Below are positions 13,522 to 23,890 of a stretch of 64,000 nt of DNA, one piece after another. Both the position numbers and the translations under genes were made by a program. Source of the stretch: Chloroflexota bacterium (lineage in GTDB: Bacteria; Chloroflexota; UBA11872; VXNJ01); contig OZ253449.1 of NCBI GenBank assembly GCA_965261345.1, positions 800,001 through 864,000 on the forward strand, read 5' to 3'. The number at the start of each line of letters is the position of its first letter. Position 1 is the first letter of the stretch. Under the pieces are notes generated by a model. It was not told the origin of the DNA, did not search any database, and saw only the letters and a list, made by a program, of their open reading frames with translations.

Positions 13522-14648
<1,127 letters not shown>

Positions 14649-14865: not shown

Positions 14866-15075
14866 TAGCTTCATCTGACTAAGCAATTGGGCATGCGCGA
14901 TGCTCTGCTCAGCCTGGATGAAGTCAAGGTCAGCGGCCGGGAGTAACCAATCGCCCCTTGTGTCTTTTGAGCACCGTGGGGGGGACCCGTGCCCCGGTGC
15001 AGCTGGCCGCGGCAGATGCCCCGTGGAGAGTTTGCGTCTTAGAACGCCGGTACAGGGATTGGCAGGTGTCGTGGC
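14866..15075 (+). ncRNA. Bridge RNA of IS110-B (ends approximate)
   Basis: 5' stem CTTCATC/GATGAAG; LTG CAATCGCCC 14948-56; RTG G7 14978-84 against flank C7 16383-89; LDG and RDG match the element ends. Confidence 0.75.
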
Positions 15076-15125
15076 GGACCTTCAATGCGATCAATACCAT
15101 CGCGCACCACACATGGGGAAGGACC

Positions 15126-16367
15126 GTGAAAGAACACACTTCCTGGTACGCCGGTATCGACTGGGCCATCGCCGAGCACCAGGTCTGCATCATCGACGCT
15201 GACGGCAACGAACATGGTCAGCGTAATTTCCCGCATCGTGGATCCGGATTGGCGGCCATGGCCGCCTGGATCCTGTCCCGCACCGGAACCGACCCCGAAG
15301 ATATCGCCATCGCCATTGAGGTGCCGCATGGACCGGTGGTCGAGAGCCTGCTCGATCGCGGGTTTAAAGTGCATGCCATCAACCCCAAGCAACTCGATCG
15401 CTTCCGTGATCGCTTCTTCCCAGCCGGCGCCAAGGACGACCGCCGCGATGCCAGGGTCCTGGCCGATGCCCTGCGCACCGATCCGCAGGTGCTGCGGCAG
15501 CTGGCATCGCCAGATCCCTTGACCGTGGAGCTAAGAGAGTTCTCACGTTTGGCTGAGGAGCTCACCAAGGAGCGCACCCGCCTTAGCAACCGGGTGCGAC
15601 AACAACTCTGGCGCTACTATCCGCAGGTCCTGGAGATCAGCAACAACGTCACCGAGCCATGGATCCTGGATCTGTGGCAGATGGCTCCCACACCGGAGAG
15701 GGGGCGGCGATTGAGTCGAGGCCGGGTAACCCGGTTGCTAAAACGCCATCGCATCCGTCGCATTGATGCGACAGGCGTGCTCTCGATGCTGCGCCAGGAA
15801 GCGATAAAGGTGTCTCCGGGCACAACCGAGGCTGCCGTCGCGACGATCACCCTGGTCGCCGAACGTCTAAAGCTCATCCAGCGTCAACTGCTCGAGGTCA
15901 ACACCCAGATCGACCGCTTAACCGATGCCATCGCCAACGATGCACTGGGTGAGAGCGGGCAGCGCGACGTGGCCATCCTCTCATCTCTTCCCGGAGTCGG
16001 AAGGACGGTCCTCGCCACACTGCTCACCGAGGCGCATGATCCTCTTATGCGGAGAGACTATCGCGCCCTGCGCTCATTATGCGGAGTTGCGCCGATAACC
16101 AAGCGATCGGGCAAGAGCATGATCGTTGTCCGACGCCATGCCGTCCATCGTCGACTCGCCAATGCCATGTACCACTGGGCCCGGGTGGCGGTTCAGCATG
16201 ATCCGGTCAGCCGACGCAAATACGACGCATTACGCCTTCGAGGCCATCGGCATGCAAGGGCGTTGCGATCGGTAGCTGACCGTTTGTTGGCGGTGGTCTG
16301 CGCTATGCTGCGTAACCAGACCCTTTATCAGCCAGAACTGCTCCGGAGTGATGCCGCAGCGGCTTGA
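15126..16367 (+). CDS. IS110-family bridge recombinase B (different subgroup), intact
   Basis: GIDWA, IEVPHG, KDDRRDA, LPGVG, KRSGK; GTG 15126 preceded by GGGGAAGG. Confidence 0.93.
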   Translation: MKEHTSWYAGIDWAIAEHQVCIIDADGNEHGQRNFPHRGSGLAAMAAWILSRTGTDPEDIAIAIEVPHGPVVESLLDRGFKVHAINPKQLDRFRDRFFPAGAKDDRRDARVLADALRTDPQVLRQLASPDPLTVELREFSRLAEELTKERTRLSNRVRQQLWRYYPQVLEISNNVTEPWILDLWQMAPTPERGRRLSRGRVTRLLKRHRIRRIDATGVLSMLRQEAIKVSPGTTEAAVATITLVAERLKLIQRQLLEVNTQIDRLTDAIANDALGESGQRDVAILSSLPGVGRTVLATLLTEAHDPLMRRDYRALRSLCGVAPITKRSGKSMIVVRRHAVHRRLANAMYHWARVAVQHDPVSRRKYDALRLRGHRHARALRSVADRLLAVVCAMLRNQTLYQPELLRSDAAAA

Positions 16368-18281
16368 CAAATGGTAGAGAGTCCCCCCCGGGGGGAACTG
16401 GAATTGGAATTCCACAACGGCCTCGGTGGATTCGCGGCCAACGGGAGCGAGTACGTTACCGTGCTCGGCCAAGGGCAGTGGACCCCGGCACCCTGGGTAA
16501 ACGTGGTTGCCAATCCGGAGTTTGGATTCCTGGCGCCCGAATCCGGATCGGGCTATACTTGGTCGGCAAACAGCCGTGAAAACAAGCTAACGCCCTGGAA
16601 CAACGACCCGGTTTCCGATACGCCGGGCGAGTCGTTTTACGTAAGAGACGAGGACGCCGGGACGGTCTGGGGACCGACCACCCTACCGATTCGCCAGGAA
16701 CGCTGGCCCGATGTCATTCGGCACGGTCAGGGGGTATAGCCGGTTCGAGCACACGTCCCACGGTATCGCCCTGGATCTGACCCAGTTCGTGCCGCTTAGG
16801 GATTCGGTAAAAATACCATGCCTCATTCTTTCCAATGAATCGAGCCGCACCCGGCGCCTTACCGTTACCGCCTACGCGGAGTGGGTGCTCGGAGTTACCC
16901 GGAACCGTTCCGCGCCTTTCGTGGTTACCGAAATTGACGCCACCACCGGGGCCATGTTTGCTCGCAATGCGTGGAACGGCGAATTTTCGGGCGGGTTGCT
17001 TTCGCCGCTATGGCCGGGAGTCAAACCTCCTGGACCGGTGACCGGCTTGAGTTCCTCGGCCGCAACGCGAGCCTCGATCACCCCGGGGCGTTAGCGCGCG
17101 GGGAGGCGCTGTCCGGCAGGACCGGAGCCGGCCTTGATCCATGCGCAGCGATTCAGACGAAGCTGGAACTCGAGCCTGGGCAGCGCGTCGAAGTGGTGTT
17201 CCTGCTCGGCGAGGATGCCAATTCCGAGGAGGCTCGCTCGCTGGTCGAACGCTACCGCGTCCTAGATTGCGAGTTGGCGCTCGGCGAGGTAGGCGCGCAC
17301 TGGGACCAGATCCTGGAAACAATTCAGGTAAAAACCCCGATCCGGCGATGAAGCTGCTGTTCAATCGCTGGCTCCTTTACCAAGTCCTTGCATGTCGAAT
17401 CTGGGCCCGTTCGGCGTTTTACTAGGCCGGTGGCGCCTACGGATTCCGCGATCAACTCCAAGGCTCCCTGGCGTTGGCGGTGTCCAATCCGCAGATCTTG
17501 CGCGAGCACGTATTGCGCGCCGCATCGCGCCAATTTAAAGGGGGACATCCAGCATTGGTGGCATCCTCCGACCGGCCGAGGGGTTCGGGCCCAGTTATCC
17601 GACGACCGCCTCTGGCTTCCGTATGCCGTAACCCACTATCTGCACGCCACTGCGGATCATCCCGTTCTAGACGAGGAGGTGGGGTGGATTGAGGGACTGG
17701 CGCTGACGCCTGAACAACAGGAACCCTACTTTGAACCAACTAGCTCAACGGAAGCGGCGAGTCTTTACGAACACTGCGCGCGGGCCTTGGACCGCAGCTT
17801 TGCGGTTGGCAGTCATGGGCTCCCGCTAATCGGCGCTGGCGACTGGAACGACGGGATGAACCGGATTGGCCACCATGGACGCAGGGAAAGCGTATGGCTG
17901 GGCTGGTTTCTTGAAACGAACCTGCGGAATTTTGCCCGGATCGCCGAATCCCGCGGCGAGAGCCGGTGCTCCGCCAGCTGGCGGAGCACGGCCGATTCGC
18001 TCGTAAATTCGCTGGAAGCGGAGGGGTGGGACGGCAAGTGGTATCGTCGCGCGTTTTTCGACGATGGGTCCCTGCTCGGCTCTGACGAAAACGAGGAGTG
18101 CCGGATCGACGCGATCGCCCAGTCTGGGGCGGTCATATCCGGTGCGGGCGACCCTGGGTGGGCGCGCCTGGCAATGCGATCTGTGGAGGAGCGGCTCATC
18201 CGGCGCGGCGACGGCCTGATGCTGCTCTTTGATCCGCCATTTGACAAGACGTCACCAGACCCCGGCTTGTATCTTGACTTC

Positions 18282-18460
18282 GGATAGTCCCGGGCGCGGC
18301 AGACCGAACCCCGCTAGGTTGTCGACAAACCGTGCCGTAGCGTGGTCGCCGCACCCGGATATCCCCTACCTGCGAGCCCGAACGATTGATTGGGCCGCCA
18401 CTTCTGCGGCAGAGCCCGCATTTTGCAAGCGTGGGCGACCAGTAGGGGATGCTAATGGAG
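18282..18460 (+). ncRNA. Bridge RNA of IS110-C (ends approximate)
   Basis: LTG AACCCCGCT 18307-15; RTG GCCGTAG 18334-40; LDG ACGATTGAT 18382-90; RDG GCAAG 18425-29; same scaffold as A. Confidence 0.82.
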
Positions 18461-19309
18461 TTTTGCACATGCACGACGCTGCGATATATGTGGGCATCGA
18501 CGTCAGCAAGGACGGCGTGGACGTGGCCGCCGGATCCGGGGGCGCGGTACGGAGGTTCGCCAACACCCCGGCCGGAGTCGGGAATCTGATAAGGCGCCTC
18601 AAGTCCTTGTTGGTGGCCCTGGTCGTACTTGAGGCCACCGGCGGCTACGAGGAGCGTTTGGCCGACGAATTGGACGACGCCGGTCATGCGGTGGCGGTGG
18701 TGAACCCGGGCCGGATCCGGAGTTTTGCCCGTTCGCTGGGGGTCCTGGCCAAGACCGACGCCATCGACGCCAGGATAATCGCGCGCTATGCCGAGGTGGT
18801 CAAACCCCCGGCAAGGGTCCAGCCGTCCAGGGCAGTCCGCACCCTGGCGGCACTGGTCGGCCGCCGCGACCAGCTGCTGGCCATGCAGGTCGCAGACCGC
18901 AACCGATTGGAGCTGGTCAGCGACCCGACCGTCCGAGGTGACATCCGCCGCGCGGTCGCCGGCTTCAAGCGGCGCATAACGACCCTGGACCGCAAGATCT
19001 CCGCCGCCATCGCCGCCGACCGCGAGCTCAAGGCCCGCGACGAGCTGCTGACATCGGTTCCGGGCGTGGGGCCGGCGTTGGCCTCGACCATGGCCGCCTA
19101 CCTACCCGAATTGGGCAGCCTCGACAACAAGGCCATTGCCGCGCTGGTGGGGGTGGCGCCCTTTAACCGCGACAGCGGACGCTCCAGCGGCAAGCGGTAC
19201 GTCTGGGGCGGCCGGAGCCAGATCCGGAAGGTGCTGTACATGGGAGCGCTGGTGGCCACGCGGCACAATCCGGCTATCAGGGCGTTCTACGAACGCCTGG
19301 TTGCGGACG

Positions 19310-21234
19310 TTCGCGGTAGGGACACCGATTGCTCGGTGCCCCCCGCACAAATCCGTACGTGCGCGTTAACGCATACGGCTTTTAGCTCGGGTATTTGACG
19401 GCAAAGCGGTATGCGGGCCACGGGTGGAGGATTCGGGCAGGGGGAAGATGTGCGGCGCTCAAGGCGCGCAGTCGCTCCCATGGGAAGCGGTCGTTTTGCG
19501 AGCGGCGGCGGATGCTGTGTAGCCACAGGCGCTCAAGCTCATGTTTGAAGCTTGAGAGGTGCCTGGAGCTGGTAGGAACGGCATAGTAGCCGAACCAGCC
19601 CTGCAACACCATGCCGAGCCATTGCCCGGTCTCCGCTGGATCGTCGTGCATCGCTGCACGCAATCGCTCCTTGATCGCCTTCAGGGTGCGTCGAACGCGC
19701 TTGGCGATGGGCTTGCGCCCCAGTCCGAACCGTCCGTTTCGTTTTATCCGGCAGTAGTGAGTGAAGCCGAGGAAGTCGAACGTTTCCGGTCGCCCCTCGC
19801 CGCGCTTGCGGCGGCTCGCTTGTGCGTATCTGCCGAACTCGATCAGGCGGGTCTTGTGGTCTGCAAGCTCTAGTCCGTACTCTTTCAGCCTGTCCTGCAA
19901 ATCCTTTGCAAATCTGGCCGCATCGCTGCGGTGTTGAAACGCCAGTACGAAGTCATCCGCGTAGCGGACTATATAGACCTCGCCGCTGGCCCGTTCGGGC
20001 CGCCATTCTTTGGCAAACCACGAGTCCAGGACTTTATGCAGGTACACGTTGGCAAGCAGCGGCGAAATCGGCGCCCCTTGCGGTGTTCCCTGCACGCTGT
20101 CGGATAGTTCTCCGGCTTCCATTACTCCGGTGCTCAGCCATTTGCGGATTAGGCGCAGGACGCGGTTGTCTCCGATTCGCTCTCCCAGGAACGAGATGAG
20201 TCGCTCGCGGTCGAGATGGTCGAAGAAGCCTTTTATGTCGGCGTCAAGAATCCAGTTGACTTTTCGGCGTTCGATGGCGTAGGCCAACGCGTCCAGCGCG
20301 TCGTGCGCCGACCTTTTGGCCTGAACCCGTATGAGAACCCGGCAAATTCCGACTCGTAGATCGGGTCGAGGATTTGTTGACACACCGCCCGCTGGAGGAT
20401 CTTATCCTCTATGGATGCGATTCCGAGCGCTCGCGTCCCCCCGTCCGGCTTGGGTATCTCTACCCTGCGGACGGGGGTCGCCCGGTAGCTCTGTCGGAGT
20501 ACTCGGTCTTTTAGGTCGAGAAGGTTCTCTTCCAGGTTCTCCTCGTACATCCTCCACGTGATCCCGTCGGCGCCGGGGGCGGCTTGGGGCTTTAGCCCGT
20601 AGAACGCATCCCTTAGCGCGTCAAGGTCTACGTGGCGGGGGAGCGCGGTGAGTTTCTCCTCTGGGTTCTCTTTGGCGTGTTGCCGTACGCGTTCGGCTCC
20701 GGGTGACACGGGAACCCACCCCTGGGTGTAGTCCGTGCCGGTGCCTGGCGCGTTCCTCTTGCTTGCGGCCCTTCTCTCCAGCGGCTCCGCCGAGGACTGC
20801 TCCTCCTTGTTCGCCGCCTTCGCAGGTACTATGGCCGCATCAGACTTCTGCACATCGTGCATCATCGGCTACGGATACCTCCTTCCCGATGCGACCCCGG
20901 ATCTGCGAGTGAACCGGGGTAATGCGCAGATCTCCCAGTTCCCGGCATTGGACGTACGAACGTGCCTGGGTTCTTCGACACCGCAGAGCCCGGCGCTGAC
21001 TGGCCCTTCGCGCCAACGCCGGTGTTGCCTTCGACCGCTTACAGGGTCTCGGCGCTCCGGAATTTATTCTTGTTTCGGTGCTCAATAGCCCTGCCCGCCC
21101 GCGCCGCTGTCAACGCTTCATGCCCGGCCTCGCGACCGGTCACGCATGACTCGCGGAGTGCTGCGGATTGGCTCCTTTCCTTTCAGCATGCGGGACTTTC
21201 ACCCGCTGTCCAATGCCAGTTAGACTGGCCGTTC
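19310..21234 (-). mobile_element. Group II intron (IIB-like, probably bacterial class E)
   Basis: DV AGCCGTATGCGTTAACGCGCACGTACGGATT, DVI ...CCCTACCGCGAA, DI stems, EBS1/2/3 pairing to flanking exons, RT ORF in DIV. Confidence 0.92.
19382..20865 (-). CDS. Intron-encoded RT/maturase without En domain; frameshift at T4 run 20314-17; true start possibly GTG 20709
   Basis: RRVEIPKPDGG, DKILQRA, SYGFRP|KRSAHDAL, DADIKGFFD, GTPQG, YADD, FDFLGF, X domain. Confidence 0.9.
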
Positions 21235-21943
21235 GCAAACCCAAGAAGCTGGCCCTGACAGCCTGCATGCGCAAGCTGCTGGTGATCTTGAACGCGATGG
21301 TGCGGCACGGCGAACTCTGGCGTGGGGAGCCCGTCTCGGACTAAACGCCTTGTAGGTCCCGACCGCTCTGCGAGCAAGGTCCCGGGCGAAGCCCTTGTCC
21401 GGGATCGGGCTCTCGCGGCGATTCCGCATCCGGTTACCGCTTCTCGATCGAGCCCGATCGGGGCTGCGTTCGCTATGAACCGCGGTCGGGGCGCTGGATA
21501 TCTCCTCCCCTATCTCCCCCGGACCCCTCTCATCCCACCTCTACGCATTTGACATTCAAGACGATTGCTACATCTAAGGGTTATGGACCAGGGATCAGGG
21601 AGAACGGTGGGCAATACACCCACGCCGCGTTCTGGTCGGTGGTGGCGTTCGCCATGCTCGGCGAGGGCGACAAGGCGAACTGTTCAACCTTTTAAACCCC
21701 ATCCGCCTTTCAAACCGGCGCGCGAGCGCCCACCGGTACAAGTTGGAGCCCTACTGGCAGGTCCCCGGTTTTGGTACCAGGTGGTTTGAGACATTGTCTT
21801 GTGGGAGGGTGCCGCCAGCTCTCCTGCAGGAGAGCTGGCGGCGAAGCTGATATTGCGGCCGCCCGTAGCACCCACGAAGACGGACGCCGGGCCGTCGATG
21901 AGGCCGGCCAGCAGCAGCCGGATTGCAACCGGAAGTTGATCCA

Positions 21944-22780
21944 TCACGCCGCCGCCTCGATCGCTTCCAGGGGCGCCAGGTAGCCGAGCGCCGAGTGCGG
22001 GCGCACGGTGTTGTAGTCGATCCGGAAGCGCTCCAGCATCACCCTGGCTTCTTCGAGGGTGAAGAATATCTCGCGGTCCAGGAGCTCGTCGCGGAGCTTG
22101 GATATGAACGATTCCGCATAGGCGTTCTCCCAGGGCGCTCCGGGCTTTATGTAGACGGTCTTGACGCTGTTGCCAGATAGCCATTGCCTTATCGCTTTGG
22201 CGGTAAATTCGGGGCCGTTGTCAGAGCGGATGTGCTCGGGGACCCCGTGGATGAGCATGAGGTCGGCGATTGTCTCGATCACGTCCCGGGCAGGGAAGGA
22301 TCGGGCCGCCCGGGCCGCTAAGGCCACGCGGGTGAACTCATCGACCACGGTAAGGATCCGCAGTGGTCTGCCGTCCTCGGTGCGCTCGTAGGTAAAGTCG
22401 TAGGCCCAGACGTGATTCGGGCGCTCGGCCATAAGCCGCGTAGAGCGTCCGTTCTCCAGCCAGAGGCGCGACTTCTTGACCTTTCGGATCGGGACCTTAA
22501 GGCCCTGCGCGCGCCAGATGCGCAATACCCGTTTGCGGTTCAGTTTCCAGCCCGAGTGTTTAAGCAGGGCGGTGATGCGCTTGTAGCCATAGCGGGGGTG
22601 CTTGAGGGAAAGCATCCTGATCTCGGCGGTGAGGTTGTCCTCTTCCGGATCGGGTTTTGGGATGTAGCGCTGGGTGCGGCGCGATTGGCCCAGCACCCGG
22701 CAGGCTCTTCGTTCAGACACCGGGAACTTGGCCCGGACGTGGTCGACGCACTTGCGCCGCCGCTCCGGGCTTAGAAGTTT
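21944..22780 (-). CDS. IS3 transposase OrfB (DDE), expressed by -1 frameshift
   Basis: HPRYGYKRI, WAYDF, VVDEFTR, RSDNGPEF, ENAYAESF, RPHSALGY. Confidence 0.92.
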   Translation of the reverse strand, partial: KLLSPERRRKCVDHVRAKFPVSERRACRVLGQSRRTQRYIPKPDPEEDNLTAEIRMLSLKHPRYGYKRITALLKHSGWKLNRKRVLRIWRAQGLKVPIRKVKKSRLWLENGRSTRLMAERPNHVWAYDFTYERTEDGRPLRILTVVDEFTRVALAARAARSFPARDVIETIADLMLIHGVPEHIRSDNGPEFTAKAIRQWLSGNSVKTVYIKPGAPWENAYAESFISKLRDELLDREIFFTLEEARVMLERFRIDYNTVRPHSALGYLAPLEAIEAAA

Positions 22781-23049
22781 CCCGAGGCCGTCTCTTTCAG
22801 GATCTGGTTGTCGAGCGTTAGATCGGCCACCGCGTGTTTTAAGCGCTTGTTCTCCTCGCGCAGGCGCTTGTTCTCCTTGGCCTCGGCGAGCGTCATCCCG
22901 CCGTAGCGGGAGCGCCAGCGGTAATAGGTCTGGACGTTGATCGCCGCCTTGCGGCAGCTCTGCTCGACGGTGTCGCCCTGGGCGACACCAAGCTCTATGG
23001 CCCGGAGCTTGTTGATGATCTGTTCGGGCGAGTACTTTCGCTTCGCCAT
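22771..23049 (-). CDS. IS3 transposase OrfA
   Basis: MAKRKYSPEQII HTH and leucine zipper; GGGAAAC -1 frameshift motif at the 3' end. Confidence 0.92.
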   Translation of the reverse strand: MAKRKYSPEQIINKLRAIELGVAQGDTVEQSCRKAAINVQTYYRWRSRYGGMTLAEAKENKRLREENKRLKHAVADLTLDNQILKETASGNF

Positions 23050-23890
23050 TGCAGTCCCCTTTCGTTGGAACCAGATTATTCACATTCCCTCTGGTACCAA
23101 TGAGGGGGAGCCGGCCACTACGTCATTGCCGCCGATGTGTTTGCGGCCTCCGCAGGTCGGTCGTGGCGGGTGGAGCTGGATGTATCGTGCGGCCATGGAG
23201 CAGATCATCGGATTTCGCAAGCAGGGGTCGGTCCCGCGAATCGATCCATGCATTCCCCGGGAATGGGAGCAATTCGAAATTACCTATCGACACGGCGCCG
23301 CCACCTACCAGAATGCCGTTGCGAACCCGAACGGGGTCTGCCGAGGCGTAGTGCAGGTCAGTCTGGATGGGACCGAGCTTGATCCCGACGGGCTGGTACC
23401 CCTGTCCGCGGATGGGTCCGAACATTCCGTCCGGGTGATCCTCGGCTAGCCGCGGCTGCGAACCCAAACGTCCTAGTCGGGGCGGGCATGGGCGCGGCCG
23501 ATTGACCTACCGCGGCCCATTGCGTCGGCCCGCGACAACTTCCACGTCCCGAAAAGTCGAAGCTGCCCCAATAGCTGGCAGCGATCGCGTCACGCCGAGG
23601 CAATGGTTTGGCGATGGTCAATCTCCTGCTGCTGACAGCGGCGATCCAACATCCGGAACGCGTTGGTGGTTCCCTTTTCGCCGATCGTCGAACCCCGGGT
23701 TCCCACCTTCGAACTGACAACCCCTGCGCAGATGGGTTTATAAGGCCGGACCGGCGGTTTTCCAAGAAATGACGATAGCGATCCTGGCCGGTCGCGTCCG
23801 CCGGTGGAATAACTTTCGCTGATCCGACTCGACGCATCACAAAATGAATGTGAAAACCCGCCAGCAATTTCCCTGAGCGACAAACCTGCG

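Follow-up and report, generated by a model that had tools for sequence, protein, structure and literature searches.

The stretch of DNA analysed here (the window) comprises 64,000 nucleotides (nt), namely positions 800001-864000 of a 2.39-Mb single-contig genome whose nearest public relatives are chromosomes of Chloroflexota metagenome-assembled genomes. On its minus strand, at 19310-21234, lies a 1,925-nt group II intron that is inserted antisense in a recombinase gene of the IS110 family of insertion sequences (ISs) and splits the Gly codon of the GKPKK motif (GAC G, intron, GC AAA CCC AAG AAG in the IS sense). We interpret the element as a mobile bacterial group II intron, compact and IIB-like, with an endonuclease-less reverse transcriptase (RT)/maturase, which retrohomed opposite the recombinase gene, and we put the probability of this reading at roughly 0.85. 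Coordinates below are those of the window unless the genome is named.

The intron boundaries follow from comparison with the same IS at two places where it carries no intron, genome 1301410-1302796 and 146112-147496. These copies are 99.7-99.8% identical to the window IS copy and both read GAC GGG AAG CCC AAG AAG at the insertion point. A second, independent empty site in an IS3-family orfA (junction 23016/23017) gives the same termini, and relative to both kinds of empty site the insertion is precise to the base. Delimited in this way, the intron runs from 5' GAACGG to CCUACCGCGAA 3'. Domains I-IV of the ribozyme match RF02005 (group II D1-D4-6) over the full model (1-225) with 163.4 bits against a gathering threshold of 49, which places the D1-D4 core at 20969-21199 on the minus strand. 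Domains V and VI (D5 and D6) are probably located at 19310-19383 on the same strand, by a match to RF00029 slightly below threshold, with the predicted bulged A in CCUACCGC, and both the AGC in D5 and the CCUACC in D6 are visible by eye in the window sequence. The Rfam matches and the empty-site comparison confirm, to the base, the initial annotation of this DNA, which had placed a group II intron antisense at this Gly codon. The intron-encoded RT/maturase gene extends over 19382-20865 (minus strand) in two frames (open reading frames (ORFs) 20233-20865 and 19382-20383). Its intact counterpart is found in the intron copy c271 (genome 269286-271216), which is 96% identical to the window copy and encodes 494 amino acids scoring 358.7 bits against TIGR04416 (cut-off 300); Pfam reports RVT_1 only in these 494 residues, the endonuclease domain being absent.

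The host element, called IS110-C here, spans 18262-21570 on the plus strand including the intron, with ends placed where its three genomic copies stop aligning, and measures about 1,384 nt without the intron. Matches to PF01548, PF02371 and NF033542 (210 bits, intact copy) assign it to the IS110 family, and its gene aligns with the structures of IS621 and ISCro4 (PDB 8wt6 and 9t56) from residue 6 to residue 306 (E 1e-42 to 1e-44), a range that takes in the part after GKPKK. Recombinase codons 1-280 and the first base of Gly281 lie at 18469-19309 on the plus strand (tblastn, 100% identity over residues 1-280). From there the frame continues for 29 codons into the antisense intron before a stop (ORF 18229-19398), and the severed last 36 codons and stop codon, starting within the split Gly codon, follow at 21235-21344 on the plus strand (tblastn, residues 282-316). 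An antisense intron has no way of leaving the recombinase mRNA by splicing. The earlier proposal that the recombinase is disabled is soundly drawn, the 36 lost codons being ones that align to the solved IS621/ISCro4 structures. Inside IS110-C, 21236 and 21239 are the sole positions where the window copy departs from both empty ones, so that the IS ends, as had also been proposed, and the 5' non-coding region are intact. This 5' non-coding end (207 nt, 18262-18468, plus strand), where a bridge RNA would be expected, is kept in all three copies, with one private change in one empty copy in addition to position 18264 at the element edge; its fold has z = -2.26, and a bridge RNA there is putative. 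A sub-threshold Rfam match to the Xanthomonadaceae small RNA sX15 was seen at 18285-18451 on the minus strand (39.5 bits, gathering 55, E 3.8e-4), the strand opposite to that of the expected bridge RNA.

Target recognition can be followed through the exon-binding sites (EBS) of the intron and the intron-binding sites (IBS) of its exon, all on the minus strand. EBS1 (GUAAGC, 21037-21042), in the terminal loop of the domain I subdomain D1d, pairs with IBS1 (GUUUGC, 21235-21240, exon positions -6 to -1, which contain the changes at 21236 and 21239) through four Watson-Crick and two G.U pairs. EBS2 (CAAGAA, 21067-21072) pairs with IBS2 (UUCUUG, 21242-21247, exon positions -13 to -8) through six Watson-Crick pairs, the exon reading ...UUCUUG G GUUUGC up to the junction. 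When EBS1 was compared in a fixed register with its own exon in 14 family copies, all six pairs formed in 11, five of six in one and two to three of six in two; with exons other than its own, the mean was 2.5 pairs (158 combinations). Thus c271 combines IBS1 GCUUAC with EBS1 GUAAGC, both copies in the sister genome G006 combine GCUUGC with GCAAGC, and the IS3-type copies combine AGAUCA with UGAUCU. EBS2 likewise changes in step with the exon across the family (in the IS3-type copies, IBS2 CCCGA and EBS2 UCGGG). This covariation secures the EBS/IBS assignment and upholds the positions (EBS1 at 21042-21037, EBS2 at 21072-21067) and pairings first proposed for the window intron. In the two poorly paired copies, c137 and c1585, EBS1 is that of a different branch, and both look like recombinants. 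The window copy and c271 differ at only two D1 bases, among them the first base of EBS2 (21072), which is C here and U in c271; the C completes the pairing of the window intron with the window IS110. The initial annotation had further paired a G at the EBS3 position with the C at exon position +1. We could not confirm this, as a search of every D1 column in a 13-copy alignment found none that covaries with the +1 base. Across the six target types, exon position +1 always holds a pyrimidine (C or U), which a constant EBS3 G pairing with either base would fit.

All five introns that carry EBS1 G(U/C)AAGC together with EBS2 (C/U)AAGAA lie antisense in IS110 genes, between bases 1 and 2 of the Gly codon of GKPKK: the window copy, c271, a 5' fragment at genome 1299453 and two copies in G006. 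Their hosts are five different IS110 elements in two genomes with 55-70% protein identity, and the introns themselves are 96-100% identical; relative to IS110-C, the c271 host shows 70% protein identity and the G006 hosts 57% and 54.5%. EBS1 pairs perfectly at three of these sites (c271 and both G006 copies), and the fragment, its own EBS1 not being preserved, has the IBS1 of c271. The homing to the GKPKK codons proposed initially is thus supported for every known member of this sub-lineage, and on the sequence evidence IS110 is the home site of this intron branch. A one-off ectopic insertion into a look-alike target, with IS110 not being the home, could draw on the two G.U wobbles in the window IBS1 pairing and on relatives with 52-55% identical RTs that sit in unrelated, intergenic places on proteobacterial plasmids. 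It is hard to square, however, with one shared codon in five of five members and with the three perfect pairings, and we regard it as scarcely credible.

A homologue search with a table of exons, suggested as a check in the initial annotation, did not meet the same EBS in unrelated targets in anything searched. The EBS of the sub-lineage stood at other targets in none of the ten copies or fragments of the window genome and in none of seven matches in the genomes of relatives (two of which, L025 and L026, were examined at the 5' end only). A metagenome scan with a D1d pattern matched at least 121 stretches, and neither the sub-lineage EBS nor the IS110 exon pattern occurred in the 80 loci examined. 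Among these 80 loci, 29 fitted a regular expression for the 5' end (28 starting with GUGCG and one with GCGCG); a GAAC-like string in one locus was on the wrong strand and was discarded as a chance match. The junction pattern was found in 2 of 401 Chloroflexota genomes (the window genome and G006, both of the same genus), in a search that had no version for a canonical GUGCG start, which makes other intron classes at the site possible. Among the papers listed in literature searches on group II introns in IS110, none describes an intron at this site, although other papers may exist; the accessible text of PMC11376236, PMC6542083, PMC7285500 and 10.64898/2026.10.21.760802 is unrelated to such an intron.

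Identical or nearly identical introns at different sites point to recent mobility. In G006 the two introns agree throughout (1,930/1,930 nt), and the flanks of their hosts have no blastn match to each other, which rules out passive carriage by one IS. Passive spread without retrohoming, in which an IS transposed together with its intron or IS copies recombined with each other, finds some footing in two observations. Intron copies in the window genome exchange patches, and in two copies the left and the right flank come from different targets. Between the window copy and c271, 72 of 1,931 columns differ, two of them within the first 311 positions (the ribozyme). The window copy is 99-100% identical to c271 outside intron tracts 301-600 and 1001-1200, and within these tracts up to 97-100% identical to IS3-type copies, indicating gene conversion between intron copies. 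Spread of this kind would nevertheless have to connect hosts of only 55-70% protein identity and the unmatched flanks in G006, and it is also opposed by the EBS/IBS covariation and by junctions that are exact to the base; we consider it very improbable.

Other branches of the family use other targets. In four related copies, inserted in sense orientation, the 5' exon consists of the opening 11 codons of an IS3-family orfA, and two of these copies keep orfA downstream sequence too. An intact orfA of this family lies in the window at 22771-23049 (minus strand), and its junction at 23017/23016 reads ...GAACAGATCA before and TCAACAAGC after the insertion point. This site (minus strand, …GAACAGAUCA followed by UCAACAAG) offers a perfect match to EBS1 UGAUCU and has lagging-template polarity, yet it is unoccupied. 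Two near-identical introns (L008, genome 44535-46456; L009, genome 110171-112092) are inserted in sense orientation 16 nt past the stop codon of a transposase that is IS110-type but belongs to a different subfamily; they represent a second branch residing in such elements, here at the 3' non-coding end. A member of another branch lies between convergent genes. In a sister genome, we additionally observed a twintron (L031, G003:C1:804936-808259, positions 1501 and 2970), in which one family member sits inside the RT gene of another, after ...FDFLGL, with IBS1 GCCUAA matching EBS1 UUAGGC. The same genome holds a 694-nt member without an ORF (L029, 1501-2194; IBS1 AUUCUA with EBS1 UAGAAU, IBS2 GGUGAA with EBS2 UUCACC). 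Among the metagenome loci, L042, L064, L077, L083, L093-L095, L098, L100, L101, L103, L104 and L116 are canonical introns of the same structural class with the 5' exon ...GA(C/T)GAGGTGATCGAAT(A/G)(A/G). Their shared exon is apparently the end of a recurrent gene and would serve another branch as a frequent homing site.

The initial annotation had envisaged a retroelement specialised on bridge recombinases. This part is not supported, since other branches of the family target intergenic DNA, an IS3 element, a second type of IS110 and the RT gene of an intron. Since sister branches with other EBS sequences target elsewhere, the apparent specialisation of the sub-lineage is ordinary homing-site specificity of one branch, and the evidence does not extend to a whole class of retroelements devoted to bridge recombinases.

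EBS2 and EBS1 pair with six plus six exon bases, whose reverse complement gives the G-K-P-K-K codons. As the protein fixes GKPKK, only the wobble bases of the target would drift, which would allow one branch to move between many IS110 species. An RmInt1-type route appears most likely, with reverse splicing into the lagging-strand template at the replication fork and priming of cDNA by the nascent strand. As assembled, the window intron would need the RT/maturase of the intact copy at genome 269286-271216, and it would depend on outside transcription, for which a co-oriented IS3 transposase gene just upstream on the intron strand is a candidate source. Splicing would join ...CUUCUUGGGUUUGC to CGUCCGC..., and the predicted lariat would link the A of CCUACCGC with the 5' G of GAAC. 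The window IS copy, in turn, would be movable only in trans, via the two intact copies.

Several points weigh against the reading of a mobile intron that retrohomed into IS110-C. The RF00029 match to D5/D6 (19309-19383, minus strand; 36.6 bits, E 1.2e-4) falls just under the gathering threshold of 40, and the intron lacks the canonical GUGYG...AY boundaries. The RT gene of the window copy is frameshifted as assembled, one A having been lost from an A5 run relative to the intact copy (A4 at 20314-20317), and public contigs break at this run, so that the frameshift may be real or an assembly error. A promoter scan upstream on the intron strand with the sigma-70 consensus, which may not apply to this phylum, returned no sites. 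Transcription, splicing and lariat formation are predictions, as is the inactivation of the recombinase by the loss of its last 36 residues. Pairing, moreover, does not predict occupancy, because a well-matched GGC site (genome 2360219) and perfect targets in G006 (GGC AAG CCC AAG AAG; L179, L183 and L187) are empty. Replication polarity, finally, was assigned from dnaA at 1,188,163 and a cumulative GC-skew minimum at 1.18 Mb (in G006, dnaA at 1.31 Mb). Lagging-template polarity holds for all five members of the IS110 branch (three here, two in G006), which are few and related, and for only 7 of the 10 copies and fragments in the window genome, the three exceptions lying 56-135 kb from the predicted terminus. 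In these small numbers of related copies, the polarity agrees with fork-dependent priming.

The state of the window copy also raises the question of whether it is a fossil, that is, a dead copy with a broken RT and no transcription that records a past event. The frameshift, the missing promoter-like site and the location in an IS pile that destroyed a host gene would all fit. On the other hand, the ribozyme has diverged from the intact copy at only the two positions mentioned, the RT/maturase could act in trans, and the frameshift, being in a homopolymer, could be an assembly error (the assembly is apparently a long-read one, judged from the single contig only). Among four public runs, contigs spanning the junctions came from X4 only: one over the 5' junction (20917-21269) shows no differences and another over the 3' junction (19277-19853) has two other letters. 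Contigs of all four runs contain the empty form, which the other IS copies are expected to give. We hold a fossil copy to be quite possible, if short of an even chance.

For the mobile intron, the unusual ends are a property of its whole family. All nine full copies in the genome (the window copy and those at genome 44535, 110171, 113729, 123673, 135869, 269286, 873300 and 1585797) and five aligned relatives start with GAACRG, and 12 of 12 copies with a visible 3' end finish with GYGAA. As identical or near-identical copies occupy different sites, the GAACRG...GAA termini must work. At the homologous 5' place, a relative from another genus of the same order has GUGCG and a relative from the same genus GAUCGG. 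In the proteobacterial relatives, D6 reads CCUACCGCGAC or CCUACCGCGAU, with CGAC or CGAU where a canonical 3' end would fall.

In the window genome, empty and occupied IS110 targets differ largely in their Gly codon: eight of the nine intact empty sites use GGG (two C-type, six B-type), and all three occupied sites use GGC or GGT. A tenth listed row (genome 876271) was left out as a degenerate, out-of-register match. With GGG, the exon base at position -2 is a C, which faces the U of EBS1. The initial annotation had noted that the IS110 copy at 13713-14642 uses GGG and is free of introns, which stands; the mismatch as the cause is weakened by the empty perfect-match targets in G006. The two changes that are unique to the occupied IS110-C, at 21236 and 21239, are both synonymous and both fall in IBS1 (positions -2 and -5), and our own estimate of the chance of this, about (6/1381)^2, links them to the intron. 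Co-conversion of the exon from a c271-type donor was rejected as their source, as the donor exon is GCUUAC. Replication orientation as the cause of the empty G006 targets was likewise set aside, being not significant (two occupied sites are favourable, as are three listed empty ones with paired targets; two further favourable sites in G006 are of unknown sequence).

From these patterns one could argue for escape by synonymous change, in which a GGG wobble keeps IS110 copies free of introns while intron and IS co-vary at wobble positions. Besides the codon counts and the placement of the two private changes, EBS1 position 2 points in this direction, being U in the window intron and C in the G006 copies, whose exon has a G. 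However, the eight GGG sites are copies of just two IS types, the change at -5 worsens the pairing, and the well-matched sites named above are empty; furthermore, both empty C-type copies have their target on the leading-strand template, so that orientation confounds the comparison. We therefore find this escape possible but unlikely. A broader proposition joins three parts. First, the family would be a natural ribozyme working with GAAC...A termini in place of GUGYG...AY. Second, intron guide bases and IS110 wobble bases would chase each other on a protein-constrained antisense motif that IS110 elements could change at wobble bases only, with the insertion permanently killing the recombinase and the intact IS ends letting the intron travel with an IS mobilised in trans. 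Third, the contest would involve EBS1 position 2 (U/C) against Gly GGT/GGC/GGG, and EBS2 position 1 (C/U) against the Pro wobble. If it were true, the two synonymous IBS1 changes in the occupied IS110-C would be a trace of this contest; taken jointly, we consider it speculative and distinctly doubtful.

The surroundings of IS110-C hold further mobile elements. A large host gene lies in pieces at 16371-18260 and 23050-23449, in frames on either side, separated by the IS110 with its intron and by the IS3, and is destroyed by this pile. A second IS110-type element of a different subfamily, with a 469-codon ORF, occurs at 14900-16500 and at genome 271578-273067. In both copies it stands directly downstream of a GKPKK-type IS110 (B-type in the window, the c271 host at the other locus), an arrangement suggesting that it targets a site at or beside the end of such elements.

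Introns inside insertion sequences are textbook behaviour, and the analysis does not reveal a new kind of element; the intron belongs to a known kind. It adds a clean multi-copy example from an uncultured Chloroflexota genus, with a conserved codon block of RNA-guided IS110 recombinases, read on the opposite strand, as the target. In this way a retroelement resembling a guide-RNA system can hop between diverged members of a transposon family and can silence them with no prospect of repair by splicing. Its notable features are an antisense, motif-coding target common to diverged IS110s, working GAACRG...GAA termini and the two synonymous changes in IBS1. The copies form a natural series for the targeting rules of endonuclease-less introns: target pairing ranges from perfect through wobble to mismatched, both replication orientations are represented, and the termini are non-canonical.

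The closest parallel is given by RmInt1 in ISRm2011-2 (IS630 family) and RmInt2 in the inverted repeats of ISRm17 in Sinorhizobium meliloti, for which the accessible text of PMC5894124 describes guide divergence among related introns, blocked spread of the host IS and a lagging-strand bias. As far as that text goes, RmInt1 and the window intron share an endonuclease-less RT/maturase, a target inside an IS and its relatives, and recognition by EBS/IBS pairing. They differ in the host IS (IS630 for RmInt1, IS110 here) and in orientation, the window intron being antisense to the transposase, whereas a passage on low splicing blocking the IS (PMC5894124) implies that RmInt1 is in sense. The GAACRG...GAA termini are a further difference from RmInt1, whose intron-encoded protein (IEP) is of class D. 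The small ribozyme, with EBS1 and EBS2 both in D1d for adjoining exon sites, recalls the compact IIB-like classes E and F (Cl.be.I2, Pe.th.I2 and Ge.ur.I1; 450-700 nt without the IEP, according to the accessible part of PMC3753933). The window intron has about 1,925 nt, a 1.48-kb RT gene and an ORF-less relative of 694 nt; from what that source gives, classes E and F use GUGYG...AY, unlike the window intron. Nearer in protein sequence are relatives on plasmids of Skermanella, Burkholderia, Cupriavidus and Acidithiobacillus, with RT/maturases that are 52-55% identical over the full length and a D6 that equals that of the window family up to its end (CCUACCGCGA-), where CCUACCGCGAC or CCUACCGCGAU would give a canonical AY; the two inspected lie between ordinary genes and not in IS110. 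On the host side, the recombinase is homologous to the bridge recombinases of IS621 and ISCro4, and the window copy is truncated at residue 281.

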